In this document: in pieces, positions 1,321 through 18,454 of the stretch
How positions within the stretch are numbered: position 1 is the first letter of the stretch
Layout: each line of letters begins with the position of its first letter
Assembly (NCBI GenBank): GCA_964485005.1
Contig: CAZAHX010000001.1
Coordinates: forward strand, 1-39,535
Direction: 5' to 3'
Origin: an uncultured Acidimicrobiaceae bacterium
Lineage (GTDB): Bacteria; Actinomycetota; Acidimicrobiia; Spongiisociales; ZC4RG35
Length of the DNA: 39,535 nt
Program-made: the position numbers and the translations under genes
Notes under the pieces: model-generated
Seen by the model: the letters and a program-made list of their open reading frames with translations, nothing else
Database searches by the model: none
What the model was told of the DNA's origin: nothing

Positions 1321-1336
1321 CGTACTGGCTAGTACT
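1321..1336. promoter_or_regulatory. Candidate operator, copy A of the 16-bp palindrome (cGTAC-TGGCTA-GTACT, 9/10 arm positions)
   Basis: Lies about 118 bp upstream of the HyuA-like ATG (1203) and about 96 bp past the tetR1 stop. Same architecture as copies B-F. Confidence 0.55.
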
Positions 1337-1431
1337 CACACAGAGCAATGTAGTACTTCTGTGATCAGGCCGACAGTGCCGCAGATGGCATGGCCTGCCA
1401 TTCAGCGAAACGGTTGCGGAAATGAACCACG

Positions 1432-2043
1432 TTAGGTGTGATCTGGCAACGCCGCGGTCGAGATCAATGAAACCATGGAGTCGATCACCTCCGGGGTAAA
1501 GGCGTGTTGGGCGATCACCGTTCGAGCGACGACTCCCGCTATCAAGCTGGCCAGAGCGAACGCATCGATCCCCGGGTCCACATCCCCCCGCGCCACGCCC
1601 CGCTCCACAACCCGCCGGATGGATCCGGACAACCGTTCGACCCACTGGGAGAACAGCTGTTGCAGTTGCGGATCGCTAACGGCAGCGCCGACGATCTCTG
1701 CCACGAGCGCAAGCGTCTTGGGGTCTCGATAGTCCCGCATCCGATGCTCGAGGATCCAGTGGACCTCCGCTCGGAACGATCCGAGATCGGGCGCCTCTAC
1801 ATCCCCGAAATGCATCCGGGCGGCATCGACGACGAGTTCTTGTTTCGACCGCCAGAAGCGGTATATGGTCGCTTTGCTCACTCGAGCTTCGGCCGCGATG
1901 TCATCGGTGGTGATAGCCGCGTATCCTCTCTCCTCCAGCAGCCGATAGGTGACATCGAGAATGGGCAACGTCATCGTCCTATCGGGATCATCCTGGCGCG
2001 TTGCGGTCCGCAAATGCGCTATCTGTTCCTGTTGTCGATCCAT
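1432..2043 (-). CDS. TetR/AcrR family transcriptional regulator (paralog 1)
   Basis: 203-aa ORF starting at ATG 2043. The N-terminal HTH LLEERGYAAITTDDIAAEARVSKATIYRFWRSKQELV is typical of TetR. It aligns over its full length with the TetR at 9941-10579. Confidence 0.9.
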   Translation of the reverse strand: MDRQQEQIAHLRTATRQDDPDRTMTLPILDVTYRLLEERGYAAITTDDIAAEARVSKATIYRFWRSKQELVVDAARMHFGDVEAPDLGSFRAEVHWILEHRMRDYRDPKTLALVAEIVGAAVSDPQLQQLFSQWVERLSGSIRRVVERGVARGDVDPGIDAFALASLIAGVVARTVIAQHAFTPEVIDSMVSLISTAALPDHT

Positions 2044-2205
2044 GCAGAATGCACCCTAGCCCTCGCCGGATTCGTAGTGACATGGTGGCCGTTTCTCTGT
2101 CGCCATCGCCGACTCACGTTCATCGAACCGACCAGCTTGACCGCGAATCTCGATCGACACGAGCTCCCTATGGTTCGTATCGACCGGAAGTAGGTGAGGA
2201 GCAGG

Positions 2206-3198
2206 ATGACATCTGAACACAATATGGAAGGATGGGGATTGTGCTTCGGCCCCGCATGGCAGACCTCGATTGCCGAGCTCATTACTCCTGCACGAGCAGC
2301 AGAGAATGCCGGATTCGATCGCGTCGCGACCGGTGAGTTCCGTAGCGATGCACTCGTATGGATGGCAGCACTGGCCGGAGCAACCCGATCGATCCCGGTA
2401 GCAACAACGATTGCAAGTATCGCCCTTCGCCATCCAACCGTCGTGGGCGAAGCGGTCGCTGCGCTCCGTGATCTCCACGGCGACCGTATCCAACTGGGAC
2501 TCGGCGTCAGCCACCCGAGCCTGGTCACCGATGACCTCGGCGTTGCCCAACCCACTCTCGACGACCTAGAGAACTACGTTGCGGCAGTCAGGGGAGTTCT
2601 CGAGGGAAGGGCATGGCGCGGTGGTGCATACCGTGTTCCCGCTCACGCCCGTAACCGCATCACCGCGTCCAGCGCTCCGATCCGCGTCTCCGTGCTGGGC
2701 GAGGTCGCAGCCAGGCGAGCAGCTCGTTACGCCGACGGCATCATCCTAACCTGGTCGCCGGTGACCTGGACGAGCCGGATCGTCACTGCGGTCCGCGAAG
2801 TGGACGCGGAAACCGGCCACAAAACCGACGTGTTGGTCGTGCTTCCAACTCTACCGAATAAAGACATCGCGGTAGCGCTGACAGCATGTGCCCGCCACCT
2901 TCGGCCATACCTGTCGCTGCCGTCGTATCGTCGAATGCTCGAGGCCGCCACGGGGGACCCGGAGACGGTCGCGAGTGCGGTTTCGCGAGAAATCGACGAC
3001 CAGCGGGCTGCCGATATCTTGGGACGAGAACTGATAGAAAGCGTCGCGGGAGTGGGCGATCGAGATTCAGTACTGGAAGCCATTCGATCGTCTCGAGAGG
3101 TTGGAGCCGACGGCATCCTTCTCTATCCGCTCGATACTGGCTCGGGCTGGAAGGAGGCTGTGAACACCACCATCACCCGATATGCGCCGAGCAACTAG
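2206..3198 (+). CDS. Luciferase-like monooxygenase (LLM) family oxidoreductase, possibly F420- or flavin-dependent
   Basis: The ORF spans 2194-3198. I prefer ATG 2206 because GAGGAG (2196-2201) lies 4 nt upstream. LLM-type sequence: AENAGFDRVATGEF...IQLGLGVSHP...GADGILLYP. Confidence 0.8.
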   Translation: MTSEHNMEGWGLCFGPAWQTSIAELITPARAAENAGFDRVATGEFRSDALVWMAALAGATRSIPVATTIASIALRHPTVVGEAVAALRDLHGDRIQLGLGVSHPSLVTDDLGVAQPTLDDLENYVAAVRGVLEGRAWRGGAYRVPAHARNRITASSAPIRVSVLGEVAARRAARYADGIILTWSPVTWTSRIVTAVREVDAETGHKTDVLVVLPTLPNKDIAVALTACARHLRPYLSLPSYRRMLEAATGDPETVASAVSREIDDQRAADILGRELIESVAGVGDRDSVLEAIRSSREVGADGILLYPLDTGSGWKEAVNTTITRYAPSN

Positions 3199-3393
3199 TG
3201 TCACGAGTCGCAATTCATGTACAGAATTTGCCCGGCTATCTATGCCCTTGACGCGTCTTCGTTCCCCGGCGAGCTGTCGAGCGTACCTTCGTCCTGCGTG
3301 GTGGTCAGATGACGTCGAGCAGCTCGGAGAGATCAGCACGGACTCAGGACACCAGATAAGGCGACGCAGTCAATTCGGCTCGTTCGCGGGGAC

Positions 3394-3792
3394 TCAACCC
3401 GTTCGACGCGCTACCGCATCTATCTGAACCTGCGCCCCCTTCCAGAGGAATGCCACACCAAAACTCGTGCGAGCCGGATGCGGCGTCGGGAATCGCTCTC
3501 CGTAGATGCCATTCATGGCATCGAGGTCAACCTCGTCAACGAATTGGACGGATGTCCGGACCACATCATTCAGTGAGAGATCGACCTCCTCGAGGATCCG
3601 CTCCAGATTGGTGATCGCCTGGTGGAACTCGGCGACAAACCCACCCTCGACGATATCACCCGTACCCGGATCCCTTCCGATCTGACCAGTGATCCACACG
3701 TGATCTCCGTCGATTCGCAGGTGCGGATATGGCCCTCGTGGGTCCGGCGCCCGGTTGCTGGTGAAGGCGACTCGATCCTCACTCGGTTCCAT
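3394..3792 (-). CDS. RidA/YjgF/TdcF family reactive-intermediate (enamine/imine) deaminase-like protein
   Basis: The ORF extends up to 3927. The internal ATG at 3792 is preceded by GAGAGGAAA and gives a 132-aa protein of typical RidA size. Motifs: GPYPHLRIDGDHVWITGQIGRDPGTGDIV...ARTSFGVAFLWKGAQVQIDAVA. Confidence 0.85.
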   Translation of the reverse strand: MEPSEDRVAFTSNRAPDPRGPYPHLRIDGDHVWITGQIGRDPGTGDIVEGGFVAEFHQAITNLERILEEVDLSLNDVVRTSVQFVDEVDLDAMNGIYGERFPTPHPARTSFGVAFLWKGAQVQIDAVARRTG

Positions 3793-4024
3793 TTTCCTCT
3801 CGATCCTGAATGCTGGTTCGGACCAATCTACCACTGCTGCATCCTGAAATCGCTCTCCGGCTAAACAAAGGATCTTCCTCGAGGGGACGGTCACACCGCG
3901 AAACATTTCCCAGCGTACTCGGACCATGACGTGTAATGAGCACTACGACTGTGCAAGCCGATGACTACTGTGCTTGACGATGGCATGATGAGATTTCGCC
4001 CTATCCGAAGGGAGCAATCGAACG

Positions 4025-4504
4025 ATGATCGATACGAAGCGCTTTCCTGACCCACGGGTCGATCAGCTCCTGGATCGATGGAGAATCACGGAGGTCCTCA
4101 ACGCCTACGCCTTTCACTTTGACCGCAACGAGCCCCAGAAGGTGGGTGAATTGTTCACCATCGATGCGGTGATCGACTACGGCCCCGAGATGGAGCAGAT
4201 AAGAGGCAATGAGGCTCTTATCTCCGTGATCACTCGAGGATTGGAAGAGATATTCGCCGCCACGAGTCACCACATCAGCAACGTGTCCGTTCGCTTCACC
4301 GATCAACGCTCCGCTGATGCCATCGCCTATCTGTATGCGTGGCATCGCTACCTCGACGGATCACCAGACGGCTACCTGTGGGGTCAGTATCACACCCGGC
4401 TGCGTCTTACAGACGACGGATGGAAGCTCACGCACATGACCCTCAAGGTCGCCGGCTCCGCCGACTTCCACCGAGAGTCGATGCATCCGATCGGCCGCCG
4501 CTAA
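4025..4504 (+). CDS. SnoaL-like / NTF2-fold domain protein, function unknown
   Basis: 159-aa ORF with ATG 4025 preceded by GAAGGGAG (4007-4014). The pattern RITEVLNAYAFHFDRNE...SHHISNVSV...GWKLTHMTL fits the SnoaL_4/NTF2-like fold. Confidence 0.65.
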   Translation: MIDTKRFPDPRVDQLLDRWRITEVLNAYAFHFDRNEPQKVGELFTIDAVIDYGPEMEQIRGNEALISVITRGLEEIFAATSHHISNVSVRFTDQRSADAIAYLYAWHRYLDGSPDGYLWGQYHTRLRLTDDGWKLTHMTLKVAGSADFHRESMHPIGRR

Positions 4505-4585
4505 ACACAGTGCTGTTCTTGCCGATCGCGAAACTCGCTTGGCGTACGGAGGGCCGTGCAGTCGACGGTCGACAGCCGAACCCAG

Positions 4586-5689
4586 TCAGCCGTTTGCACT
4601 GAACAGCGGCTGCCCCAACTCCGCCTCGTCTACTTCGACTCCCATGCCGGGACGCTGCGGCGCCCGGATGCGTCCGCCCTGCCGCCGCGGCGCTCCCTCG
4701 CCGTAGCTTCGGGTGATGTACCCGTTCAGGTCCGTGGACGCCAGACGCAGGCGTTCGAGGGTGGAATGGGCGAGGTGACTTACGGCGGCCGTGACGAGGT
4801 CACCACCGCAGGCGTCCTCGATGATCATCGCAATGCCCAGCTCGGCGCACACGTCCCGGATCCTCATCGCCTTGGTGAGGCCGCCGTATTTGCTGACCTT
4901 GATGTTGATGGCGTCCATGGCGTCGTCGCCGTGGGCGCGGATCAGGGCTCTGAGACTGTCGATCGACTCGTCCAGGATGAACGGTAGCCCGGTCCGTCGC
5001 CGCACCGACAGGCACTCCTCGTAGGACGCACACGGTTGCTCTACGTACACATCCAGCTCACCGAGCGCCGACACGACACGGACTGCCTCGTGGGTGAGCC
5101 AGCCCTTGTTGGCGTCGGCTATCACCGAGTCGCCCGGGCGCAACACATCAACAACCGCCCTGACCCGGTCCACATCGGCCTCGAAACCTTCCCCCACCTT
5201 CAGCTGGAAGCGCCTGTACCCCTCCTCCTGATAGCTCCGGACACGTTCTGCCATCACCTCGGAGGTGTCCTGGGACACCGCCCGGTACAGGTCGACGGCC
5301 TCCCCATCGACACCGCCCATCAGCGTCGACACCGGGGTCCCGGCCACCTGTCCGAGGATGTCCCAACAGGCCATGTCGAGTGCCGACTTGGCGTAAGGGT
5401 GACCGTTGAGCACGGCATCCATCCTCATGTTGATGCCGGACAGCCGTGTGGGGTCCATGCCGATGAGATGGCGTGCCAGGTGCCCAATGCCGGTTCGAGC
5501 TCCTTCTGCGTATGCGGGCAGGTAGGCGGGGCCCAGGGGGCAGACCTCCCCCCAGCCGCTGATGTCGTCGGTGGTGTCGATGCGGACGATCGTGCTGTCG
5601 AAGGCCGGCAAGACCCCTCCCGACCAGCGGAAAGTGCCCTCGGCCAGAGGGAGATCCATCTGCCACGCCGAGATCCGCGAGATCTTCAC
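4586..5689 (-). CDS. Enolase-superfamily enzyme, mandelate racemase/muconate lactonizing enzyme family (MLE subgroup-like)
   Basis: 367 aa, GTG start at 5689. Motifs: KxK in RRFQLKVGEG, metal ligands DANKGW / VEQPC / LDESI, and a second catalytic Lys context INIKVSKYGG. Confidence 0.85.
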   Translation of the reverse strand: MKISRISAWQMDLPLAEGTFRWSGGVLPAFDSTIVRIDTTDDISGWGEVCPLGPAYLPAYAEGARTGIGHLARHLIGMDPTRLSGINMRMDAVLNGHPYAKSALDMACWDILGQVAGTPVSTLMGGVDGEAVDLYRAVSQDTSEVMAERVRSYQEEGYRRFQLKVGEGFEADVDRVRAVVDVLRPGDSVIADANKGWLTHEAVRVVSALGELDVYVEQPCASYEECLSVRRRTGLPFILDESIDSLRALIRAHGDDAMDAINIKVSKYGGLTKAMRIRDVCAELGIAMIIEDACGGDLVTAAVSHLAHSTLERLRLASTDLNGYITRSYGEGAPRRQGGRIRAPQRPGMGVEVDEAELGQPLFSANG

Positions 5690-5723
5690 GTCGACCAGGT
5701 GCCCGCTGTGGCCATGGATCTAC

Positions 5724-5739
5724 AGTACCAGCTAGTACT
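5724..5739. promoter_or_regulatory. Candidate operator, copy B (AGTAC-CAGCTA-GTACT, perfect arms)
   Basis: Sits in the centre of the 71-bp divergent spacer between the enolase-superfamily gene (start 5689) and the SDR gene (start 5761). Confidence 0.6.
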
Positions 5740-5760
5740 TAGCCGACTCCGGGAGGCACC

Positions 5761-6492
5761 ATGGACGACAACCGAGTGAGTCTCGTCACCGGAGCAGGCT
5801 CGGGAATCGGGGCCGCCACCGCCGCCGCCCTGGCGCAAAGGGGCGACGCTGTCGTCTGTGCCGACCTCGACCTGGAGCGGGTCGAGAACGTGGCGGCGGG
5901 TCTCCCCGGGGCGCTCCCGGTCGGGGTCGACGTGGCAGACGAGGCACAGTGCGAGGCCATGCTCGAGAAGACCATCGCGACATTCGGACGGCTCGACGCC
6001 GTGGTGACCTGCGCCGGCATCGAGGTGGCCTCCCCCGCCCTCGACCTCGACCTCGACACGTTTCGCCGGGTATTGGACGTCAATCTAGTGGGCAGCTTCC
6101 TCACCGCCCAGCTCGGCGCCCGACACATGGTCGACCGGGGCGGCTCCATCGTCCTGATCGGCTCGCTCATGTCCCAACAGGCCCTGCCAGGATCGGCGGC
6201 CTACTCCGCCTCCAAGGGCGGCGTGTTGATGCTGGGCCGGGCGCTGGCGGTGGACCTCGCCCAGTACGGGATCCGGGTCAACGTGATCGGCCCCGGCGTC
6301 GCCGACACACCCATGAGCGCCGCCTCCCTGTCGGATCCGGAGCGGCGGCGAGCCCTCATGGACCGGGTCCCGCTGAAGCGACCCGCCGGCCCCGAGGAGA
6401 TTGCGGCGGTGGCGGCCTTCCTCACCTCCGACGAGGCCGGTTATGTGACGGGCGCCTTCGTCCCCGTCGACGGAGGCTGGCTGGCCGGTTGA
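5761..6492 (+). CDS. Short-chain dehydrogenase/reductase (SDR) family oxidoreductase
   Basis: 243 aa. GGGAGG lies upstream of ATG 5761. Motifs: TGAGSGIGAATA cofactor loop and YSASKGGV catalytic Tyr/Lys. Confidence 0.9.
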   Translation: MDDNRVSLVTGAGSGIGAATAAALAQRGDAVVCADLDLERVENVAAGLPGALPVGVDVADEAQCEAMLEKTIATFGRLDAVVTCAGIEVASPALDLDLDTFRRVLDVNLVGSFLTAQLGARHMVDRGGSIVLIGSLMSQQALPGSAAYSASKGGVLMLGRALAVDLAQYGIRVNVIGPGVADTPMSAASLSDPERRRALMDRVPLKRPAGPEEIAAVAAFLTSDEAGYVTGAFVPVDGGWLAG

Positions 6493-6498
6493 GAGTCC

Positions 6499-7578
6499 TC
6501 AGCCGGCGACGGGCGCCCCCACCTCGACGACGTGGCGCTTGCCACCGGTGCCGTGCTCGGCGATGTCGGCCAGCACCTCGGGGACGTCCTCCAGCTTGTA
6601 TGTGTCCCCGGCGAAGGAGGTGAGGTCGAGGCCGCCGGAGAGATAGATGGAGTTGCCGATCCGGAAGTCTCTCCTGGTGAAGCCGAACGTCGTCACCAGC
6701 CGGACTTCCCGGCGGACGAACTCACCGAGGTAATCCTGGAAGTCGATGGAGGTGGGCCCGTCGGTGATCCCCATGAGCAGGGCGGTACCTCCGGGCCGGA
6801 CGGCCCGTATGGTGGCGTCGAGGCTGGACGGGTGGCCGGCCGTCTCGAAGGCGAGATCCACTCCGTGCGGCGCCCCGGCCAGGTGGCGGACCTCCTCGGA
6901 CACCTCGTCGGGTGTCAGCGCCGCCACGTTCAAGAGCTCGTCTGCCCACGACGACACCGTCTGGAGTTGGTCGTCGCTCACGTCCGTGGCGATCACCGTG
7001 GTGGCCCCGAATGCCCGCACCACCTGGCTGACGGTGGCGCCGATGCTCCCCACTCCGCTCACCAGCACCCGGTCGCCGGCGGACACCCCCGAGCGGGTCA
7101 CGGCGTGCACCGCCGCCGGCAAGGCGGAGCCGAGCATCACCGCCTCGGAGATCGGGACGTCGTTGGGCAGGGGGAACATGTTCGCCTCCGGCACGGCGAC
7201 GTAGTCGGCGAACCCGCCGTCGAGGTCGATGCCCAGGTGGCGCATCCACGGGCAGATGCTCTCCTCTCCCCGCATACACCACTCGCAGATGCCGCACCCG
7301 ACCACGGCGTCGACCACCACCAGCGTGCCGGGCTTCGGGCTGGCCGGGGAAGACGTCTCTATGACCTCCCCGACGATCTCGTGGCCGAGGATGCGAGGGA
7401 GCCCGGCCGTGTCCAGCATCCCCTTCAGCATCTGGCTGTGGAAGAGTCCCACTGCCGAGCCGACCACCCGCACCGTGCCCCAACCAGGACCGGGCCGGGG
7501 CGCAGGCACCTCGTCGATCACGATGGATCCGACGTCCGTCATGAGCAGTGCCCGCATCTCGGCCGGGATGGTGGTCAC
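6499..7578 (-). CDS. Zinc-binding medium-chain alcohol dehydrogenase family protein
   Basis: 359 aa with GHEIVGEVIE and CGICEWCMRGEESIC zinc motifs and GVGSIG in the Rossmann fold. The start is uncertain: GTG 7578, or ATG 7557 which would give MRALLMTD. Confidence 0.9.
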   Translation of the reverse strand: MTTIPAEMRALLMTDVGSIVIDEVPAPRPGPGWGTVRVVGSAVGLFHSQMLKGMLDTAGLPRILGHEIVGEVIETSSPASPKPGTLVVVDAVVGCGICEWCMRGEESICPWMRHLGIDLDGGFADYVAVPEANMFPLPNDVPISEAVMLGSALPAAVHAVTRSGVSAGDRVLVSGVGSIGATVSQVVRAFGATTVIATDVSDDQLQTVSSWADELLNVAALTPDEVSEEVRHLAGAPHGVDLAFETAGHPSSLDATIRAVRPGGTALLMGITDGPTSIDFQDYLGEFVRREVRLVTTFGFTRRDFRIGNSIYLSGGLDLTSFAGDTYKLEDVPEVLADIAEHGTGGKRHVVEVGAPVAG

Positions 7579-7645
7579 AGCCGACTCACGGGAGGCAACT
7601 CAGGATCGCGATGGGCACGCCAAAACGATCCACATCGATGCGGTG

Positions 7646-8329
7646 CTATTCGATGATGTCGTCGGAATCCAGTTCCCAAATCAGTTCCGTATACAGGTCG
7701 CCTGCGGGAACCCAATGCCGCCGGGAATACTTGACCCTGGGGTTGTAGGCATGGACGATGAATTCGTCCAGGTCGCAATAGTTGGCCGAGTACTCGACAT
7801 CGGGCGCATTATCCCGGAGATAGTCGCCGATGGGGCAATTGAGCCGCAGCACGTACTTGACCATGTTGTCGTCTTGGTCGTAGTAGCGCTCGGTGTCGAC
7901 CTTGGGCGACCACTGGAAGTAGGACCAGAACTCCTCGAAGAAGTTGCCGAGACTGAGCGCCTTCCCCTTCGCCCGGACACGCTCGGCCATGCGGCGACCC
8001 ATGTCCTCACCCTGCCGTTTCCGGGCTCGGGCCACGGCCTCCCGGCCATCTTCTGCTCCTAGCTCGGTCTCCATGGCGTCGGCGAGGACCGAGAAGATCT
8101 TGGTCTTGGCGTGGAATTCCGGCTCGTTCCTGTCCCATCCCTGCTGGACCGGATCATCAGCCGCCACCTCCCGATACTTCTCGAGATAGCGCCGCTGGCC
8201 CTCCGGGTCGGACTTGACCTTGGTGCGAGCGTACCTGTCTCCGGGCACGTCCTCGACCGCATCGGCCAGTTCCTTCAGCTCGGGATGGTTCACCTCCACA
8301 CGAGCGTATTCCTGCACCTCGGACCTCAC
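7646..8329 (-). CDS. Hypothetical protein, possibly L-2-amino-thiazoline-4-carboxylate (ATC) hydrolase-like
   Basis: 227-aa ORF with coding-like composition and a GTG start at 8329. The C-terminal NYCDLDEFIVHAYNPRVKYSRR resembles the CDLD region I recall from the ATC_hydrolase family. That family assignment is from memory only and is weak. Confidence 0.45.
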   Translation of the reverse strand: MRSEVQEYARVEVNHPELKELADAVEDVPGDRYARTKVKSDPEGQRRYLEKYREVAADDPVQQGWDRNEPEFHAKTKIFSVLADAMETELGAEDGREAVARARKRQGEDMGRRMAERVRAKGKALSLGNFFEEFWSYFQWSPKVDTERYYDQDDNMVKYVLRLNCPIGDYLRDNAPDVEYSANYCDLDEFIVHAYNPRVKYSRRHWVPAGDLYTELIWELDSDDIIE

Positions 8330-8361
8330 TTTCGCACGCTGTTCTGGCTGCCAACGACTCT

Positions 8362-8377
8362 AGTACTAGTGAGTACT
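8362..8377. promoter_or_regulatory. Candidate operator, copy C (AGTAC-TAGTGA-GTACT, perfect arms)
   Basis: About 32 bp upstream of GTG 8329. A minus-strand TAGAGT hexamer (8357-8362) abuts it. Confidence 0.6.
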
Positions 8378-8418
8378 GAAGGACACCCCTGACCCAAGTC
8401 CCTCGCCCGGCAGAGGAT

Positions 8419-9363
8419 TCACGCCGGTCCGGGGCGATCCTGACCAACGGCAGCGACCGCCACCGGCAATGGACGACGGCGGGACAAGGCGATGGCTGCC
8501 ACTCCCCCGAAGACCAACAGCAGACCGAGGGCCTGAGTTGGCGAGAACGTCTCGCCGAAGATCATGTAGGCCCAAAGCACGGTTGCGGCCGGCTCCATCA
8601 CCAGCAGGATCGACGATTGCCACGCCTCTACCCGCGCCAGGTTCGAGGAGATCACCAGCCAGCCCAGCACCTGGGCGCCGAGCGCGAGGGCCAGCAGCCA
8701 CCCGTGGGCCGGCCAGGAGGGCGCCAGCGTGAATCGGGGGTCGAGGGGCACTAGAAGGAGGCTACCCACCACCGCCCCTACCGTGGCATCCCTCAGCGTT
8801 CCGACCGGCGCCGACCCCGAGACTCCGGCGTGGCGCAGCAACAACAGGAAGGCTACGTAACAGGTCGCCATCAGTATCCCGAACAACACGCCCCGGACCG
8901 GATCGGCACCCTGAGGTTGGACACCCACGACACCGGAGATGAGGACCACCCCCACCATCACCACTGGGGCGGTGGCGATGCCCAGCCGCGAGGGCCGCTG
9001 GCCCAGCAGCAGCCATCCCACCGCCATCATGATCACCACGTGGGTGCTGCCCACGACCGTGGCCAGGCCGGCGCCCATCAGCTCGATGGCGGCATGCCAG
9101 GCGGCGTGGTTTCCGGCGAGGATCAGCCCGGCGGCATAGGCGATGAGCCGTTGGCGTCGCGGCCGGGGCGGGTTGCGCCCGAAGGCGTCGAGCACGAAGA
9201 GGACGGGAACGGCGTAAACGGCCCTGAAGAAAGCCACCGTGACCGGGGAGGACTCGGCCAGACGCACGAAGATGGCGCTGAACGACACCACCATGACCCC
9301 GAAGCCGAGGTACAGCCGGACCGCCAGATCGCTTCGACCGGCGCCGGTGAGGGGCTCAGCCAA
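8419..9363 (-). CDS. EamA/DMT-superfamily transporter (10-TM type)
   Basis: 314 aa, hydrophobic throughout, with the two-repeat EamA-like pattern. It follows the VOC gene after a 12-nt gap. The TTG start at 9363 is uncertain. Confidence 0.8.
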   Translation of the reverse strand: MAEPLTGAGRSDLAVRLYLGFGVMVVSFSAIFVRLAESSPVTVAFFRAVYAVPVLFVLDAFGRNPPRPRRQRLIAYAAGLILAGNHAAWHAAIELMGAGLATVVGSTHVVIMMAVGWLLLGQRPSRLGIATAPVVMVGVVLISGVVGVQPQGADPVRGVLFGILMATCYVAFLLLLRHAGVSGSAPVGTLRDATVGAVVGSLLLVPLDPRFTLAPSWPAHGWLLALALGAQVLGWLVISSNLARVEAWQSSILLVMEPAATVLWAYMIFGETFSPTQALGLLLVFGGVAAIALSRRRPLPVAVAAVGQDRPGPA

Positions 9364-9375
9364 GTGGGAGCGGTC

Positions 9376-10579: not shown

Positions 10580-10597
10580 CCGTCTTCCCGGCAGGTG

Positions 10598-10613: not shown

Positions 10614-10651
10614 AACCTCGGGCACATGACGCTCCCTTTCCCTGAGCGCGC

Positions 10652-11764
10652 ATGACCACCGTCCTGCTGTCGGGGGTCGGAAACCTGGGGGGCTGGGCCC
10701 TCGAGTTCCTGGCCCGCGCCCCCGGAATCGACCGCATCGTCACCCTCAAACGCAGTGAGTGGGTTGGTCCCTCACGAACGGCCCTGGCCATGATCGGGTC
10801 GGTCTTCTCGGGTCACACCAAGGATTTCAGCCATCACCGGCTCGACCTGGACGACGTGGAAGGAGTGGCTCGGCTGATCGCCGATACGAAGCCTTCTGTC
10901 ATCCTCCACTCGGCCACGGTGGGATCTCCCCGACGGCTGATGCAAGCCGACCTCGACCCGGGAATGAGGGCGACCCTCGAAGCCGCCACGTTCGGGATGT
11001 GGCTGCCCTGGCATCTGCTTCCGGCGACCCGGCTGATGGAGGCGGTGCTCGAGTCGGGGGTAGAGACCCGAGTAGTCAACGCCTCGTTTCCGGATGTCGT
11101 CAACGTGAGCCTGTGGAACGCCCTGGGCGCGGGACCCAGCGCCGGGGCGGGAAACGTGGAAGTCCTGGCCGCCCAGGCCTTTCGTCATGTCGTGGCCCAC
11201 TCCGGAGCCGCTCCCTCGCAGGTGGAGGTGTCCCTCGTCGGTTCCCATGCCCTCCTCACTCACGGTCCGGGAGCGGGCGTCCCCTACCACCTCCACGTCG
11301 CCGTCGGAGGTCGGGACGTCAGCGATGAGTACGACCTGGCCTCCATCGTCGCCGAGAGCCCGGAGCCCATCGACTGGCGGCGAGTCCCTGAGTTCTCCGT
11401 CTTCGCCGCCTCGGCGGTGAAGAATCTGCTCGCCCTGGTGGGCGACGACGCCGTAGCCACCCATGTCACCGGCCCGCTGGGACTCCCGGGTGGCTACCCG
11501 GCCGACATCGGACCCGACGGGGTGCGGTTGAGGCTTCCTCCGGGACTGACGAGAGAGGAGGCCGTGGGGATCAACGAGAGAGCCGCCCGCTGGGATGGGA
11601 TCGAGCGGATCGACGACGATGGGACAGTCGTCTACACAGCTGAGGTCGCCGGAGCGATGGCCGAGCTGGGCTACTCCGTCGACTCGATCTCCGTCGACGA
11701 GGCGGCGCACCGAAGCGAGCAGTTGATGGCCCTGATGGATGACCTGACACGACAGGAGAAATGA
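10652..11764 (+). CDS. NAD(P)-binding Rossmann-fold protein, saccharopine-dehydrogenase-like; function unknown
   Basis: 370 aa. The N-terminal VLLSGVGNLGGWALEFLA is a GxGxxG dinucleotide-binding loop. The overall layout resembles saccharopine-DH-like NAD(P)-binding proteins. I recognise no specific family. Confidence 0.5.
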   Translation: MTTVLLSGVGNLGGWALEFLARAPGIDRIVTLKRSEWVGPSRTALAMIGSVFSGHTKDFSHHRLDLDDVEGVARLIADTKPSVILHSATVGSPRRLMQADLDPGMRATLEAATFGMWLPWHLLPATRLMEAVLESGVETRVVNASFPDVVNVSLWNALGAGPSAGAGNVEVLAAQAFRHVVAHSGAAPSQVEVSLVGSHALLTHGPGAGVPYHLHVAVGGRDVSDEYDLASIVAESPEPIDWRRVPEFSVFAASAVKNLLALVGDDAVATHVTGPLGLPGGYPADIGPDGVRLRLPPGLTREEAVGINERAARWDGIERIDDDGTVVYTAEVAGAMAELGYSVDSISVDEAAHRSEQLMALMDDLTRQEK

Positions 11765-11765
11765 A

Positions 11766-12710
11766 ATGCCCGACTTCGTTCGCCGACCTCTGGCAGGGCT
11801 CTTCCCCCTCATACCCCTCACGCTGGGCACCGACGAAGAGATCGACTTCGACGAGCTGCGTCGAAGTGTCAAGACGGTGGCCGGAGCGGGGGCTCCGGGC
11901 TGCATCGTGTTCGGCTCCATGGGTCAAATGACGAGTGTCTCCGAGCGGGAGTTCGACGCGGTGTGCGAGGCGGCGGTCGAGGTTGGATCAGAGGCCGGGA
12001 TCGCCGTGGTGATCGGCAGCACGGCCAGCTACCAGCGAGAAGCGGTGAGACGGGCCCGCGTGGCGGAACGAGCGGGGGCCGACGGCTCGATGCTCGCCGC
12101 CCCGTACGCACTTCCCCTGTCGCCGGAATGGGTGACCGACTTCTTCGTGGAGGTGGCCGAATCACTGGACGGTGACATGGCTCTGATGCTGTACAACTAC
12201 TCGCCCCTCAATGCCGTGAACGTCACCGCCGAGATGTGGGAGCGCCTGGTGGAAGTGGACAACATCAAGGCGATCAAGGAGTCGAATACGGCCCTCCCCC
12301 ATTTCGACCAGGTGCTTCTCACGGTCGCCGAGCGCATCAACGTGTTCACCGGCAACGACCCGGCCTTCTTCCACGGTTCGACTTTGGGAGCCGCCGGTGC
12401 CACCGGCATCTTCAGCTGGGCCGGCCTGAGAACCGGGGTCCGATTCATCGAAGAGTGCCGGCTGGGTCACCAGGAAGACCCCTGGGTGCGACAGGCGTTC
12501 CGGGCGCTGCAGAACATGTCGGCCGCCATCCGCCGACCGGACATGCCGCCGATGCTCTCCTACGAGCACGGCTACCTCAACGCCCTGTCACAACTCGGCG
12601 GCATCCACCCGGGACCACCCCGCAAGCCCTACAGACCGCTGCCCGACGAGGCGCTCGCCGAGCTGAGAAGCGCAGCTCAACCACTCATGGAGATGGAGGC
12701 GGGACTGTGA
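11766..12710 (+). CDS. Dihydrodipicolinate synthase/N-acetylneuraminate lyase family (class I aldolase) protein
   Basis: 314 aa. The ATG is 1 nt after the upstream TGA. DHDPS-family pattern: GSMGQ (in place of GTTGE), LYNYSP, and IKAIKESN carrying the Schiff-base Lys context. Confidence 0.8.
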   Translation: MPDFVRRPLAGLFPLIPLTLGTDEEIDFDELRRSVKTVAGAGAPGCIVFGSMGQMTSVSEREFDAVCEAAVEVGSEAGIAVVIGSTASYQREAVRRARVAERAGADGSMLAAPYALPLSPEWVTDFFVEVAESLDGDMALMLYNYSPLNAVNVTAEMWERLVEVDNIKAIKESNTALPHFDQVLLTVAERINVFTGNDPAFFHGSTLGAAGATGIFSWAGLRTGVRFIEECRLGHQEDPWVRQAFRALQNMSAAIRRPDMPPMLSYEHGYLNALSQLGGIHPGPPRKPYRPLPDEALAELRSAAQPLMEMEAGL

Positions 12711-13747
12711 GCCCGGGCGATCGCAAACCCGGAGAGATCCTCGTCGTGTCCCGAGGCGACGTAGAGTCTCTCCTCACGCCGGCGGCTTGCCTGGAGCGAT
12801 GCCTCGAGACGTTCGAGTGGGTCGGGCAGGGAGAGGTCGAACAGGTCAACCCGGTCAACCTCTACGTCCATGACCGGTCCCAGCCGGAGCCCCCCTTCGG
12901 GCACGGCGTCGTCCAAGCTTTCCCGGCCATGATCCGGCCGCTGGAGCGGGCGGCGGTGAAATGGCTGTCCAGCTTCCGCAAGAACCCCCGGCGCGGGCTA
13001 CCCGGTATCTCCGCTCTCGACCTCCTCACCGACACGGAGACCGGGATGCCCCTGGCACTGATCGACGGTACTTCCGTGACCAACATGCGAACCGGCGGCC
13101 ACGCCGCCGTCGGAGCCAAGTTCCTCGCCAGGGCCGACTCCAGCACGGTGGCGATCATCGGATGCGGAAACGAGGGACGGACTCACCTGCAGCATCTCGC
13201 CGAGCTCTTCACCCTCAGCAACGCCGTCGCCTTCGACATCGACAGCACCCAGCTCGGGAAGTTCCAAGAGGAGATGTCTCATGATCTGGGCCTCGAGGTG
13301 GCCGCAGCGTCAACCGTCGAAGAGGCCGTGGCCGAGGCAGACATCGTCTGTATCGTCACCAATGCGTCCGGGCCGGTTCTGATGGAGCCGTGGGTACGGG
13401 CGGGAACCCACGTGTGTGCGACCACCGGCTTTTTCGACGTCGACAAGGCCTGCGCCACGAAGTTCGACAAGTGGGTGGTCGGCTGGTACGGGCGGGACCT
13501 GGAGTGGATCGAAGGCCCCGAGGTGGGCAAGCTCGGGGGGTTGAAGCCAGGCGATCTCACCACGGCCGACATATGGGCCGACATCGCCACCGAGATAATG
13601 GGAGGAACCAGACCGGGCCGGGAGTCCGACGACGAGCGGACCATCATGACGCACCTGGGGATGTCTGCCCTCGACGCGGCGGTAGCATCCCTGGTCTACG
13701 ACCTGGCGCTGGAGGCGGGAGCCGGAAACTGGGTCGAGGTCTTCTGA
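12707..13747 (+). CDS. Ornithine cyclodeaminase/mu-crystallin family protein
   Basis: The long ORF 12236-13747 overlaps the upstream gene. An in-frame GTG at 12707 forms a GTGA overlap with that gene's stop and gives 346 aa. Motif: GTSVTNMRTGGHAAVGAKFLARADSSTVAIIGCGNEGRTHL. Confidence 0.85.
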   Translation: MSPGDRKPGEILVVSRGDVESLLTPAACLERCLETFEWVGQGEVEQVNPVNLYVHDRSQPEPPFGHGVVQAFPAMIRPLERAAVKWLSSFRKNPRRGLPGISALDLLTDTETGMPLALIDGTSVTNMRTGGHAAVGAKFLARADSSTVAIIGCGNEGRTHLQHLAELFTLSNAVAFDIDSTQLGKFQEEMSHDLGLEVAAASTVEEAVAEADIVCIVTNASGPVLMEPWVRAGTHVCATTGFFDVDKACATKFDKWVVGWYGRDLEWIEGPEVGKLGGLKPGDLTTADIWADIATEIMGGTRPGRESDDERTIMTHLGMSALDAAVASLVYDLALEAGAGNWVEVF

Positions 13748-13748
13748 T

Positions 13749-14039
13749 ATGGACGAATCGACTACCACTGAGAATCAGCCCGGCAGGGTCGACCTCGATC
13801 TGCTCGATGCAACCCTCGACTACATCCGGCCGGCGCTGCAGTCGGACGGAGGGGACATGATCTTCCACGGGGTCGACGACAAGGGTGTGGTCAAGCTGGA
13901 GCTGCTCGGGGCGTGCGGAACATGTCCACTGTCCATCGTCACCCTCGTGTCAGGGATCGAGCGGCTGGTCATGCAGAGGGTGCCGGGCGTGTCGGGAGTG
14001 GTGGCCCACTCGCCGGCGATTCCCGACCTCGGCGGCTGA
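13749..14039 (+). CDS. NifU C-terminal (Nfu-type) domain protein
   Basis: 96 aa. The ATG is 1 nt after the OCD-like TGA. IRPALQSDGGDMIFHGVDDKGVVKLELLGACGTCPLSIVTLVSGIE matches the Nfu/NifU C-terminal CxxC domain. Confidence 0.85.
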   Translation: MDESTTTENQPGRVDLDLLDATLDYIRPALQSDGGDMIFHGVDDKGVVKLELLGACGTCPLSIVTLVSGIERLVMQRVPGVSGVVAHSPAIPDLGG

Positions 14040-14054
14040 ACCGGTCTCCTACGG

Positions 14055-14924
14055 TTACCAGGAAAGGGCGGAGCGAAGAGTCTCGACGGTCCGGCGCGGC
14101 CCGTCACCGACCCAGTCGACGTCCACGACCACGTCGGTGACGCCTGCTCTCGCAACAGCGGCGAGACGAGAGGCAACGACTGGAGTGGGACCCGGAATCC
14201 GCATCGCCACCCGATCAGGCGCCGCCCGGTCGTTCCTCTCCGCCTCGGCTCGGATACGTGCGACACCCTTCTCGATGACGCCGACGTCTATCTCATGGGC
14301 GTTCTGGAGAGCGAACCAGCCGTCGCCTCTGGTAGCGACCCGACAGAGCGCGGCAGACGACATGCCACCTATGAGGATCGGCAAGTCGCGTACCGGAGTC
14401 GGATAGCACAACAGTCCTTCTGTCACCGGGTAGTGCCCCTGCTCTCTGGGCGATAGCTCACCGGTCCAGCACTCGCGCAGGATCTCGATCCATTCGTCCA
14501 GCACCGCGCCGCGAGCCTCGAAAGGTGCTTGCAGGGCCTGGAACTCCTCTCGCAGCCACCCCGCTCCCACACCGGCGACGATCCTTCCCTCACTCATGAG
14601 GTCGAGGCTGGCCAACTGCTTGGCGAGGATGAGGGGGTTGCGCATCGGGACAATCAGAACACCCACACCGATGTCGACGGACTCAGTCGCCGCCGCGGCC
14701 GTCGCCATGGCGATGAGCGCGTCGACCCACGGCTCCTCCGGGCGCCAGGTCATCGTTCCGTCGGCCGAGAAGGGATACCGAGACGACATCTCTCGCGGCA
14801 TGACGACGTGATCGCTGACCCAGAGGCCGTCGAATCCAGATGCCTCGGCGACTTGCGCCAGCTCCGCCAGGAGACCGACTCCCGGAACCGCGCCGGAGGA
14901 AGGCAGTTTGGCTCCGATTCTCAC
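14055..14924 (-). CDS. LLM-class oxidoreductase (resembles the F420-dependent Rv2161c-type subgroup)
   Basis: 289 aa. GTG 14924 is preceded by AGGACGAG. Motifs: FDGLWVSDHVVMP...GVGAGWLREEF...PILIGG. Confidence 0.85.
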   Translation of the reverse strand: MRIGAKLPSSGAVPGVGLLAELAQVAEASGFDGLWVSDHVVMPREMSSRYPFSADGTMTWRPEEPWVDALIAMATAAAATESVDIGVGVLIVPMRNPLILAKQLASLDLMSEGRIVAGVGAGWLREEFQALQAPFEARGAVLDEWIEILRECWTGELSPREQGHYPVTEGLLCYPTPVRDLPILIGGMSSAALCRVATRGDGWFALQNAHEIDVGVIEKGVARIRAEAERNDRAAPDRVAMRIPGPTPVVASRLAAVARAGVTDVVVDVDWVGDGPRRTVETLRSALSW

Positions 14925-14952
14925 GTTGCTCGTCCTGATCGTTCGCGTCCCG

Positions 14953-15702
14953 TCATGTCAGCCATCCTCCGTCTACCACCAGGGTGTGGCCGGTGATGTA
15001 GCCGGCAGCGCTGGAGGAGATGAAATCCACGGCGCTCGCTACGTCTTCGGGGACTCCGAGCCGGCCGAGGGGTATCTGGCGGGTCGCCTGCTCTGCCAGG
15101 CCGTCGTCTCCCAGCAGGGATCGAACCAGCTCGGTGTCGATCGTTCCGGGAGCGATGGCGTTGACCCGCACCCCGTGAGGTGCCAGCTCTCTGGCAGCCG
15201 AAACGGTCATTCCGCGCACTGCGCTCTTCGACATGTCGTAGGGGACCATGGGGCTCGTCGAGGACGTGAAGGCCGAAGTCGAAGCGACGTTCACTATCGA
15301 CCCGCTACCTCGCCTCACCATGACTCGGGCTGCGGCTCGAAGGACGAAGAACGAACCACGGAGGTTGACCGCCATGAGTCGGTCGAACTCGTCCCTCTCT
15401 ATCTCGGTCAGCGGCTTCGACCAACCGACCCCGGCGTTGTTCACGACCGTGCCCAACGGCACATGGGCGTCGAGTTCGGATACCGTCTTTTCCACCTCGT
15501 CTGTGGCGGTGACGTCCATATGGACGGCGCGCACATCGAGGCCCACGTCTATCAACGGCTGCGTCGCCGCCACTGCCGCCTCGTAGTCGACGTCGGTCAG
15601 GAACACGACATCACCCCGCCGTGCCAGCCGCTCCGCTATCGCAGATCCGATGCCTCCAGCGCCCCCGGTGACGAGGGCGCCGGAGCGCACAGGATCAGGC
15701 AT
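14953..15702 (-). CDS. SDR family oxidoreductase
   Basis: 249 aa with TGGAGGIGSAIA and YDMSKSAV motifs. Confidence 0.9.
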   Translation of the reverse strand: MPDPVRSGALVTGGAGGIGSAIAERLARRGDVVFLTDVDYEAAVAATQPLIDVGLDVRAVHMDVTATDEVEKTVSELDAHVPLGTVVNNAGVGWSKPLTEIERDEFDRLMAVNLRGSFFVLRAAARVMVRRGSGSIVNVASTSAFTSSTSPMVPYDMSKSAVRGMTVSAARELAPHGVRVNAIAPGTIDTELVRSLLGDDGLAEQATRQIPLGRLGVPEDVASAVDFISSSAAGYITGHTLVVDGGWLT

Positions 15703-15714
15703 TCCAGACGTGGC

Positions 15715-16575
15715 TCAGGGCAGTCCCTGAGTAGGGCCGATGATCTCTTCATACAACTGGTCGAGGGTGCCGCTGGCGGTGTAGAAGTCGATCCAGTTGT
15801 CGACGTAGCGCCACCAGATCACGTCGCCCACCGGGACCACCCAGCGGCCATAGGCCTGGCTGAAGGGGTCGTCGGGGTTGAGAACCGACGTGTTGGGATT
15901 CTCCTCGACGAACCGGAAGGCCTGGTACTCCTCGACGACGATGGCATCCGCCCGGCCGGCTGCGACCTCCAGAAAGGCAGGCTGTTGTTCCAGCTCTACC
16001 AATTCCGCGTCGGGGAAGTTGGTGCTCACGAAGTTGGCTGCCGTGGATCCGATCAATGCGGTGATCGTGACATCCGAGGAGTTGAGATCATCCACCGAGT
16101 CGATCCCAGAATCGTCGTTGATCACAGCTACCTGACGGTAAGGAACATACGGCCGTGTGAACCAGAGCTGTTCCGCCCGCTCCGGTCGGTTGACGAGACC
16201 CACCGAGATCATGTCGAACTGGCCGGCCAGCATCCCGGGAATCAACGAGTCGAACTCCTGATCCATGATCTGCAGTTCAACCTGGAGGTCTTCGGCGAGC
16301 ATGGTCACAAGCTCGACGTCGTATCCAGCCGGCTCGTTGTTCTCGTCGCGGTACATCTGTGGCTCGAACTGCAACGTCATGCCGACGATCAATGTCCCAC
16401 GATCCTTGATGACCGACAGGCGGTCCTCACCTGGTGTCGGCGCCGCGCCGCCGTCCTCCGCCGGGACGGTCTCCTGAGCATCTGCGTCCTCGGTGGCCGT
16501 CCCCGTGCACGCGCCCAGGATCAGCGCCGTCACCAGGAGCAACACGAGTTGCCGCCCCATTCTGCTTGTCTTCAT
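15715..16575 (-). CDS. Polar amino-acid ABC transporter substrate-binding lipoprotein (family 3 SBP)
   Basis: 286 aa. GGAAGGAGA lies upstream of ATG 16575. Signal peptide plus lipobox LILGAC, followed by a typical SBP_bac_3 body (GTLIVGMTLQFEP...GYDVEL...FDMISVGL). Confidence 0.85.
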   Translation of the reverse strand: MKTSRMGRQLVLLLVTALILGACTGTATEDADAQETVPAEDGGAAPTPGEDRLSVIKDRGTLIVGMTLQFEPQMYRDENNEPAGYDVELVTMLAEDLQVELQIMDQEFDSLIPGMLAGQFDMISVGLVNRPERAEQLWFTRPYVPYRQVAVINDDSGIDSVDDLNSSDVTITALIGSTAANFVSTNFPDAELVELEQQPAFLEVAAGRADAIVVEEYQAFRFVEENPNTSVLNPDDPFSQAYGRWVVPVGDVIWWRYVDNWIDFYTASGTLDQLYEEIIGPTQGLP

Positions 16576-16587
16576 CAGGTCTCCTTC

Positions 16588-17388
16588 CTACGGTCCGGTG
16601 ATCGGCCCATGGCCCATCGCCTGCGGTTCGTCACTTCCCCCCAGCACCGCTTCTTGCAGTTCCCGCAAGCGAGCGGTGCGTCGACGCTGTCGAAACGAGC
16701 GGAGCGGCTTTACTTCGGTGAGGACGTCGACGGCCGTGAAGCGCTTCTCCAGGTACTTCACGCCGTAATAGATCACCGTGGTGAGCCCCAAGTAGATGAC
16801 CAGGAGCGCGAGATACACCTCGAAATATCGGAAGGTTCGGTTGGCAAGTGTGTTGGTGACACGAAGGAGTTCCGCTACACCGATTATGTAGAGCAACGCC
16901 GAATCTTTGACCATGCCGATGAGCATGTTGCCGGTGGGTGGAATCACTATCCGGGTTGCCTGAGGTAGCGTCACGGTGAAGAAGGTCCAGGGCGATGTCA
17001 TACCTACCGAGAACGCTGCCTCCTTTTGCCCGTGAGGTACGGCTTGGATTCCCGCCCGGAATATCTCGCCCAGCCAGGCGGAATACTGGACGCACAGCGC
17101 TATCATTCCCGCACCGATCGCGGTGAGAAACCGGATATTGAAAGCTATGGCCAGGCCATAGTAAACAAAGAGGATGAACACGAGCATGGGAATAGCCCTG
17201 AATACATTCACATAGAGGGCCATTACCGGTGCGATGATCCGATTCTTCGACATTCGCAACAGTGCCACCACAACACCCAGCACCGTCGATATCGCGAAAG
17301 AGACGACGACGACGAACACCGTTATCTGAAGACCCTGCCAGTAGAGGTCGAGATTCCCTGTCACAACGTCCCAGCGGAAGTCGATCAT
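16588..17388 (-). CDS. Amino-acid ABC transporter permease (His/Glu/Gln/Arg/opine type)
   Basis: 266 aa. Multi-TM protein with the EAA-loop region EAAFSVGMTSPWTFFTVTLPQA. Its ATG overlaps the ATPase stop by 1 nt (TGATG). Confidence 0.9.
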   Translation of the reverse strand: MIDFRWDVVTGNLDLYWQGLQITVFVVVVSFAISTVLGVVVALLRMSKNRIIAPVMALYVNVFRAIPMLVFILFVYYGLAIAFNIRFLTAIGAGMIALCVQYSAWLGEIFRAGIQAVPHGQKEAAFSVGMTSPWTFFTVTLPQATRIVIPPTGNMLIGMVKDSALLYIIGVAELLRVTNTLANRTFRYFEVYLALLVIYLGLTTVIYYGVKYLEKRFTAVDVLTEVKPLRSFRQRRRTARLRELQEAVLGGSDEPQAMGHGPITGP

Positions 17389-18167
17389 CAGAGAACCGCC
17401 TGGATGAAGGCGCGGGTACGTGTTTCCCGGCAGTCGGTATAGAGCTCCCGGCCCCCTTGCTCGACGATCATCCCTTCGTCCATGAAGATGTTGAGGTCTC
17501 CTACCTCACGACCAAACGCCATCTCATGGGTGACGACCACCATCGTCATTCCCTCTATGGCGAGCTCCCTCATGACTGCCAGTACCTCGCCCACCAACTC
17601 CGGATCCAGGGCAGATGTCGGTTCATCGAACAGCATTATCCGGGGTTCCATTGCCAGCGAGCGGGCGATGGCCACCCGCTGTTGCTGGCCCCCCGACAGC
17701 ATCGTGGGATAGCTACCCAGCTTTTTCAACAAGCCGACTCGATGCAGCTGCTTGGCGGCCCGCAACTCTGCTTCCTCCCGGGTCATTTGCTTCACCCGCT
17801 TGAGAGCGATAGCGACGTTGTCGAGGGCTGTCAGGTGCGGAAAGAGGTTGAACTGCTGAAACACCATGCCGATGCGTTGACGGAGCTGACGCGGCTTTCC
17901 CCTCACAGGTGACTGGTTGTCAGGATCGGATAGGTACTCGACACCTTCGAATCTCACGGAGCCGGAGTCGGGTATTTCCAGGAGGTTCATCGTGCGGAGG
18001 AGAGTCGACTTGCCGGAGCCCGATGGGCCGAAGATGACGACGTGTTCTCCCTGAGCCACGTCGAGATCGATTCCATTCAGCACGTGGTTGCTGCCGAATG
18101 ACTTGTGAATTGCGCGCAAGCTGAGGAGTGGATCCGGTTTCACACCATTGAGATAGCGTGCGCTCAC
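17388..18167 (-). CDS. Amino-acid ABC transporter ATP-binding protein
   Basis: 259 aa with Walker [10 protein letters not shown], signature [16 protein letters not shown] and Walker [16 protein letters not shown] start at 18167 with GAGGA upstream. Confidence 0.95.
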
Positions 18168-18339
18168 AGCGATATCACATCCTCAGGACTCCATGAGCAG
18201 TTCCTAGCAGACATGGTGCAAGAGAGCCCATCATCATCAATTTCAGATGCGCAAATCAGCAAACACATTCACAAACCTCACCTGGAATACCGCATAATCT
18301 CTGCCGGCTAGTGTCAAGCAAGAACCTGTTGACCGTCCG

Positions 18340-18362
18340 ATTCGAGGCTCACAGCCTCGAAT
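18340..18362. repeat. Perfect 10-bp inverted repeat (stem-loop) in a long non-coding gap
   Basis: attcgaggct-cac-agcctcgaat. There is no adjacent T or A tract, so it is not a canonical intrinsic terminator. Confidence 0.6.
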
Positions 18363-18438
18363 CCTCAGCCATTCAACGTCCGATGGCGAGGGGGTGTCAG
18401 GCGCTCGTTTTCCGCTCAGGCACTTACTCCTTTGACCG

Positions 18439-18454
18439 AGTACGCTAGCGTACT
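18439..18454. promoter_or_regulatory. Candidate operator, copy F (AGTAC-GCTAGC-GTACT, palindromic over all 16 nt)
   Basis: About 272 bp upstream of the GTG (18167) that starts the amino-acid ABC / SDR / LLM operon. Confidence 0.55.

Follow-up and report, generated by a model that had tools for sequence, protein, structure and literature searches.

A predicted GTAC-N6-GTAC operator and predicted local regulon of two TetR_C_11 paralogues in an uncultured Acidimicrobiaceae bacterium

The palindrome RGTACY-N4-RGTACY is described here as the predicted operator of two paralogous TetR-family genes, tetR1 and tetR2, found in a stretch of 39,535 nucleotides from an uncultured Acidimicrobiaceae bacterium (GenBank assembly GCA_964485005.1, contig CAZAHX010000001.1), which is hereafter called the window. 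A literature search for a TetR protein with such an operator, or for the gene cluster around it, gave no match, and the only look-alikes were AcnR, McbR, VnfA and YefM. The nearest characterised TetR operators are those of AcnR and McbR, both TetR-family proteins of Corynebacterium glutamicum, the former differing in the spacing and the latter in the half-site.

In PMC2723105 the McbR operator is given as TAGAC-N6-GTCTA and the AcnR operator as CAGNACnnncGTACTG. McbR resembles the system proposed for the window: it is a TetR-type repressor from an actinobacterium, its palindrome spans 16 bp in the 5-N6-5 layout, and a single strictly conserved operator serves many transcription units of one metabolic theme. 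However, its half-site is TAGAC instead of AGTAC (positions 2-5 read GTAC in 36 of the 36 sites of the matrix described below), and it governs sulphur metabolism genome-wide with S-adenosylhomocysteine as effector, whereas the sites described here belong to a compact island. AcnR is also a TetR repressor, and its half-site holds GTAC(TG), but its GTAC cores are separated by 4 bases instead of 6 (GTAC-N4-GTAC occurs 0 times in the window) and its single target is aconitase; no aconitase was found among the called window genes, and there is no orthology. The mycobacterial regulator KstR recognises the motif TnnAACnnGTTnnA. KstR and KstR2 (PMC1995591) offer the likeness of a short palindromic TetR operator that precedes many operons of one catabolic pathway and is conserved across related genomes. 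On the other hand, their regulon is far larger (lipid and cholesterol catabolism), their ligand is known and their motif is another one.

Outside the TetR family, the hexamers TGTACA of the YefM-YoeB system reportedly lie 12 bp apart, centre to centre. The operators of this antitoxin (PMC1802561) likewise pair two short hexamer palindromes, each centred on GTAC and adjacent to one another in a promoter; they are TGTACA hexamers bound by an antitoxin, whereas the window has RGTACY hexamers spaced by 10 bp, and no toxin-antitoxin genes were seen among its called genes. VnfA, as cited in PMC7294313, shares the core word GTAC-N6-GTAC and its spacing, but it works at a distance as an enhancer-binding activator of sigma-54, whereas the sites of the window seem to overlap promoters and no such protein is encoded in it.

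The six copies in the window are listed below, all of them without strand. Genes were called from codon usage and named from Pfam and NCBIfam, and every label that the original prediction had given to the flanking genes agrees with this independent gene map.

Site A, 1321-1336: CGTACTGGCTAGTACT; between the tetR1 stop and the hyuA start, 96 bp from tetR1 and 117 bp upstream of hyuA
Site B, 5724-5739: AGTACCAGCTAGTACT; in a 71-bp divergent region, 34 bp from the enolase-superfamily gene and 21 bp from the SDR gene
Site C, 8362-8377: AGTACTAGTGAGTACT; 32 bp upstream of the minus-strand ATC_hydrolase-ADH operon
Site D, 9871-9886: AGTACGGATCAGTACT; in a 94-bp divergent region, 24 bp from VOC-EamA and 54-66 bp from tetR2; candidate autoregulatory operator of tetR2
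Site E, 10598-10613: AGTACTGGGTAGTACT; 18 bp past the stop codon of tetR2 and 38 bp ahead of the operon of a 370-amino-acid (370-aa) protein, DHDPS, OCD and NifU
Site F, 18439-18454: AGTACGCTAGCGTACT; 271 bp upstream of the minus-strand ABC transporter/SDR/LLM operon

When the whole window was searched for AGTACNNNNNNGTACT with at most one mismatch, six matches were obtained, at 1321, 5724, 8362, 9871, 10598 and 18439. These are the six palindromes of the original prediction; five are perfect and site A differs at position 1 (C for A), while shuffled sequences give an expectation of 0.17 and none of the 100 shuffles held six. The spacing is just as specific, as the 85 GTAC words of the window form six GTAC-Nk-GTAC pairs at k = 6 and zero at every other k from 0 to 13. 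Relaxing the search to two mismatches adds only two words, at 1342-1357 (beside site A) and at 26085 (intragenic), and at three mismatches the 66 words found, against 53 expected, correspond to background. The isolated half-sites that had been reported inside genes were offered as examples only; the list is incomplete, since AGTACT is also present at 1352, 26085 and 33732. The first of these, at 1352-1357, is a third hexamer situated 21 bp (two helical turns) past the right arm of site A, and a similar extra GTAC is seen right after the D-type sites in loci L030 and L031 of related genomes.

All six sites lie in the non-coding DNA, which makes up 5.8% of the window (P about 4e-8), and all six are at the 5' ends of transcription units, as had been claimed. 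In the first 19 kb there are eight intergenic regions that must hold a promoter, and a site is present in six of them; the two without a site are the divergent regions between tetR1 and LLM (2044-2193) and between RidA and SnoaL (3928-4024). The full site was not found in the remaining 21 kb of the window, which has its own IclR regulator.

The interpretation stands up to the comparison of related genomes that had been proposed as a check. The orthologous set consists of 21 non-redundant clusters from metagenomes (11 loci including the window, plus ten from a separate scan), with TetR proteins 56-90% identical to tetR2. GTAC-N6-GTAC occurs 53 times in the 271 kb of these loci. In the first 11 loci (208.6 kb) it is found 36 times, against 0-8 times for each other spacing between 0 and 20, and the separate scan of metagenome contigs gave 17 sites in 62 kb for the ten further loci (58-76% identity). 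At least one site is present in 21 of the 21 loci, and in every locus where the DNA adjacent to tetR is covered a site lies at most about 210 bp from that gene. With a crude gene caller, 49 of the 53 sites fall in the non-coding part of the sequence (13.7% of it), so the intergenic enrichment that had been anticipated is observed; the remaining four either are orthologues of intergenic sites that were masked because starts were called too far upstream, or run into the final codons of EamA. No full site is present in the flanks of L016 outside the cluster.

The positions of the sites are also kept, upstream of orthologous operons as had been foreseen, in intergenic DNA that has otherwise diverged. 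C-type sites are located upstream of ATC_hydrolase in nine further loci, a version with one core mismatch being present in L016, D-type sites between VOC and SnoaL/tetR in eight further loci, and E-type sites just past tetR in 11 of the 11 aligned loci, 16-208 bp beyond its stop codon. Site B, between enolase and SDR, has counterparts in L015, L016, L039 and L042, and site F, upstream of the ABC operon, in L016 (18394) and L039 (17122). As for site A, its counterpart is the order tetR - site - nifU-hyuA-hyuB in L025. Positions without an exact site hold versions with one core mismatch (L016 7929, L027 9614, L025 8548 and 8679).

From these data it is proposed, with a probability of about 0.82, that the TetR-family repressors encoded in the window, tetR2 and tetR1, use the six palindromes as their operators. 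The observation made in the window was correct in detail, and its interpretation as a linked regulon with a predicted operator is sound and supported: the motif travels with orthologues of both TetR paralogues and is absent from control DNA, except upstream of some distant TetRs.

The tetR2 gene, located between sites D and E, encodes TetR_N (1.5e-14) and TetR_C_11 (4.8e-15) domains, and tetR1 encodes TetR_N (5.1e-17) with TetR_C_11 also present. Database searches revealed about 100 relatives at 50-90% identity, all derived from metagenomes or metagenome-assembled genomes, the few named ones carrying the labels Acidimicrobiia or Actinomycetota; beyond this group the next relatives reach at most 32% identity. 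Because of this drop, both window proteins are assigned to one tight TetR_C_11 subfamily. They reach no named equivalog in NCBIfam, the nearest solved structure is 2fq4, an uncharacterised TetR, and KstR is among the sequence-similar PDB matches over the DNA-binding domain. The two paralogues are 54% identical, with near-identical helix-turn-helix residues, and in 17 subfamily members including both of them the positions T49, T50, I53, A54, A57, S60, K61, T63, Y65, R66, W68, K71 and Q72 are invariant. Since the DNA-reading residues are almost identical, both paralogues probably read the same sites.

It is nevertheless conceivable, if rather unlikely, that only one paralogue reads a given site (for instance TetR2 sites B-F and TetR1 only site A, or the reverse), with private regulons set by the spacer or the flanks. 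Site A, beside tetR1, is the sole imperfect site and has the extra half-site; TetR1-type loci such as L025 control another operon set, nifU-hyuAB-racemases; and the proteins share only 54% of their residues overall. Nevertheless, the helix-turn-helix is the invariant part, the regulators found at the tetR2 position in other genomes (P0024 and P0041) are slightly closer to TetR1 and yet go with the same motif, and beyond shared ancestry no rule of spacer or flank divides TetR1 sites from TetR2 sites.

A second question is whether the motif is read by a transcription factor not linked to the island, such as a lineage-wide global regulator, the nearness of TetR being incidental. This is improbable. 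TetR binding to the sites is predicted from sequence, and GTAC-N6-GTAC, being also the reported site of the unrelated VnfA from Azotobacter vinelandii (PMC7294313), is not a TetR-specific word. Still, the motif is confined to the TetR-adjacent island, and the sole other regulator detected in the window, the IclR gene, is about 5.7 kb from site F with no full site nearby. Directly upstream of this IclR-family gene (24149-24928), at 24119-24144, lies GGAACCGACCGGTACAGTCAGGTCCC, which contains two overlapping words, each one core base off GTAC-N6-GTAC; it may be an operator of the IclR-family regulator itself, or chance.

The loci around distant TetRs also bear on the identity of the reader. A scan of genome contigs with the single protein TetR2, based on TetR2-specific peptide patterns, returned only distant TetRs (identity of at most 35%), which serve as negative controls only and are no measure of the presence of the subfamily in cultured genomes. 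GTAC-N6-GTAC was not found in 16 loci around distant TetRs (287.7 kb). In 70 metagenome loci around distant TetRs (24-37% identity) there are five sites in 530 kb. Three of these are found in the 300 bp that precede the TetR match (expectation 0.06, P = 4e-5); besides, words with one core mismatch occur 20 times in these upstream stretches against 3.6 expected, GGTACGATACCGTATC being recurrent. One of these loci, L047, holds at 204-224 a perfect 21-bp palindrome, AGTACGATAC-C-GTATCGTACT. Words of the form GTAC-N6-GTA(C/T) are seen 35-200 bp upstream of distant TetR_C_11 genes in L047 (204-224), L058 (9884), L059 (9889), L080 (1177), L098 (9836), L109 (4481), L101 (157) and L107 (253). With the island of the window, these loci have in common only generic SDR, ADH and LLM superfamily matches far from TetR. 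The TetR gene alone is thus common to all locations of the motif, which points to TetR, and not to another protein, as its reader. The motif is therefore tied to the TetR paralogues by three results: at least one site in 21 of 21 loci, the proximity to the gene (within about 210 bp), and the recurrence upstream of distant TetRs in unrelated contexts. The last one suggests a wider GTAC-N6-GTA(C/T) recognition code for the TetR_C_11 clade.

The anatomy of the sites fits a TetR dimer. The consensus RGTACY-N4-RGTACY comprises 16 bp, with cores 10 bp apart centre to centre, a spacing that is constant in the 53 sites. In the matrix built from 36 sites, the left arm has A in 25 and G in 9 at position 1, GTAC at positions 2-5, and T in 21 and C in 12 at position 6, GTACTG being the commonest left arm; positions 7-10 of the spacer show a weak RG·CY preference; and the right arm has A in 20 and G in 10 at position 11, GTAC at positions 12-15, and T in 23 and C in 9 at position 16. 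The flanks contribute at most 0.5 bit. As each RGTACY hexamer is itself palindromic, the site is equally an inverted and a direct repeat. A spacing of 10 bp places both hexamers on one face of the helix, as a TetR dimer requires.

It is very improbable that the palindromes act as RNA hairpins, terminators or attenuators, or that they represent a small dispersed repeat (REP/MITE-like). Sites E and F with their flanks fold to -14 and -11.7 kcal/mol, F with z = -3.4, and site E directly follows the tetR2 stop codon. However, five of the six hairpins are no better than those of shuffled sequences and none has a U-tract, divergent promoter regions impose no single transcript orientation, and what is kept is the GTAC cores and the 10-bp spacing, not the complementarity of a spacer stem. 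A search of the whole window in Rfam gave zero matches. In the case of a dispersed repeat, the flanks are not shared between copies, and all copies lie at the 5' ends of transcription units. The hairpin reading was rejected, the hairpins being weak.

Coming back to the sites as TetR operators, their placement in promoter regions is informative. The divergent regions of sites B and D measure only 71 and 94 bp, so that an operator there must overlap both core promoters. The original prediction had pointed to four TAnnnT hexamers, resembling actinobacterial -10 elements, formed by an arm and its flank, and all four are where it placed them. In nine of nine D-type sites the right arm and its flank read TAC(T/C)(C/G)T, with the T two bases past the site invariant. 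A TAnnnT hexamer (TAGAGT, TAGACT, TACACT, TAAAGT or TATGAT) abuts most C-type sites; in the majority of genomes it precedes the site, and in the window and L015 it follows it. In L016 the E-type site stops 12 nt short of the start codon and its right arm is overlapped by TACACT, a geometry that implies a leaderless transcript.

In the mechanism envisaged, one homodimer would occupy each 16-bp site, with each helix-turn-helix on one RGTACY hexamer; to judge from the geometry and from what is generally known of TetR proteins, the hexamers would be read in successive major grooves on one DNA face. As the sites lie in or against core promoters, the bound repressor would block RNA polymerase in all six intergenic regions, at eight promoters altogether, the position of the sites being observed and the occlusion deduced from it, and about 17 genes would be kept repressed. 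A substrate or intermediate of the pathway would then enter the C-terminal pocket and release the repressor, so that the whole island would be derepressed together. At a guess, this ligand is either a lactam or an imino or amino acid of cyclic structure.

Several points weigh against this interpretation. The orthologous sites were found by pattern, and the invariance of their GTAC cores is consequently in part circular; the evidence free of this circularity is the frequency, spacing and position of the sites compared with the controls. Some of the distant-TetR loci are related and were counted more than once, which somewhat inflates their enrichment. The region upstream of tetR1 (2044-2193) has no site, and therefore tetR1 is not autoregulated through the GTAC-N6-GTAC motif. 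A TAnnnT hexamer overlaps the E-type site in only about 4 of 11 loci, and sites A and F are farther from the start codons (117 and 271 bp), where occlusion is less obvious. Finally, a sigma-70 consensus scan of positions 1-19500, uninformative for a high-GC actinobacterium, gave 0 promoters against 3.2 expected, so that the -10 assignments depend on the TAnnnT look-alikes. The repressor geometry that had been proposed is therefore well supported for sites B, C and D, and for A, E and F it is a possible one.

That the sites are VnfA-type upstream activator sequences of a sigma-54 enhancer-binding protein has a negligible probability and was rejected: the core word is identical and NifU-like genes are present in the regulon, but sigma-54 is not known in Actinobacteria, no window protein has a Sigma54_activat domain, -24/-12 promoter words like TGGCAC-N5-TTGC number 24 against 30 expected, with none having an intact GG in a site-bearing promoter region, and sites at 12-54 bp from start codons are too near for such a sequence.

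The genes of the island, in which the TetR repressors are thus taken to act, are as follows:

1-1203, minus strand: hyuA-like gene (ATP-dependent lactamase/hydantoinase, alpha subunit), truncated at the end of the window; target of site A
1432-2043, minus strand: tetR1, paralogue of tetR2
Between tetR1 and the enolase-superfamily gene: LLM, RidA and SnoaL genes
4586-5689, minus strand: enolase-superfamily gene (512.6 bits against a cut-off of 500); target of site B
5761-6492, plus strand: SDR gene; target of site B
6499-8329, minus strand: ATC_hydrolase-like and Zn-ADH operon; target of site C
8419-9846, minus strand: VOC/glyoxalase and EamA exporter operon; target of site D
9941-10579, plus strand: tetR2 (TetR_N and TetR_C_11); in the database its protein begins at 9953 and has 208 aa
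10652-14039, plus strand: operon of the 370-aa Rossmann-like protein, DHDPS-like, OCD/mu-crystallin and NifU-like proteins; target of site E
14055-18167, minus strand: operon of a polar amino-acid ABC transporter (ATPase, permease, SBP_bac_3), SDR and F420-type LLM; target of site F

About 17 genes of the whole window are counted downstream of a site, instead of the about 20 first estimated. On the contigs that encode ten members of the subfamily the island recurs in locally varied form, made up of SDR, ADH, ATC_hydrolase, EamA, VOC, (SnoaL), tetR, (E1 alpha/beta), the 370-aa protein, DHDPS, OCD, NifU, LLM, SDR and the ABC transporter. The TetR1-like member of L025 instead heads a nifU-hyuA-hyuB-racemase-peptide ABC operon.

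In orthologous islands the gene for the 370-aa protein (10652-11764, plus strand) invariably comes first behind the E-type site. Pfam, NCBIfam and PDB gave no sequence match for this protein; its N-terminus is Rossmann-like (VLLSGVGNLG), and in its orthologues the sole marks are weak ones to Sacchrp_dh_NADP or Epimerase. For the OCD-family protein the scores stay under every cut-off, among the models of alanine dehydrogenase and of pyrroline/piperideine-2-carboxylate reductase. Together with the polar amino-acid importer this suggests, but does not prove, that the regulon serves to break down a lactam or an imino or amino acid of cyclic structure. The enolase-superfamily gene is a further clue to the class of substrate. 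As only some of the orthologous islands have this gene and site B, the core substrate may be something other than hydroxyproline itself.

Other observations concern the composition of the islands. In many orthologous islands (L019-L024, L030 and L031, about 4980-7130) a 685-aa flavoprotein with Oxidored_FMN and Pyr_redox_2 domains is inserted between ATC_hydrolase and ADH, and these islands also have a pair of E1 alpha/beta dehydrogenase genes inserted between tetR and the gene of the 370-aa protein; the window lacks both insertions. In other genomes SnoaL lies directly behind a D-type site and RidA inside the LLM/ABC operon, and these two genes appear to have moved out of the control of the motif in the window genome. 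Near site F there is a gap of 755 bp (18168-18922), with a lower-GC untranslated stretch between the site and the ABC ATPase start codon and with no convincing open reading frame. Given the absence of Rfam matches, a riboswitch or leader is not the reason for the gap downstream of site F, and the equivalent site in L016 is only about 114 bp from the start, against 271 bp in the window. Outside the island, an open reading frame of 229 aa at 30930-31619 (minus strand) has good coding signal and no Pfam match.

A broader reading, which is speculative and on the whole doubtful, would join these elements. GTAC-N6-GTA(C/T) would be a family-wide code of the TetR_C_11 clade across very different bacteria; the two paralogous sensors, with near-identical DNA-reading heads and diverged ligand domains, would share one operator set, so that the island would be derepressed only with two different metabolites (AND logic); and the island would encode a route, not described so far, by which a lactam or cyclic imino acid is broken down, built around the 370-aa protein and the ATC-hydrolase-like, OCD-, DHDPS- and NifU-like proteins.

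In summary, phylogenetic footprinting gives good support to the motif as a predicted operator, and to the island as a predicted local regulon, of a TetR_C_11 subfamily that is uncharacterised. It would be an ordinary local regulon and a very well-known kind of system, which leaves the general view of gene regulation unchanged. It provides a comparatively validated predicted operator for a subfamily of about 100 metagenomic members that has neither a named equivalog nor a close solved structure, and it delimits an island of about 17 presumably co-regulated genes in uncultured Acidimicrobiia-like bacteria. The operator-repressor pair may serve as a handle for finding the inducer, and hence the substrate, through ligand screening.

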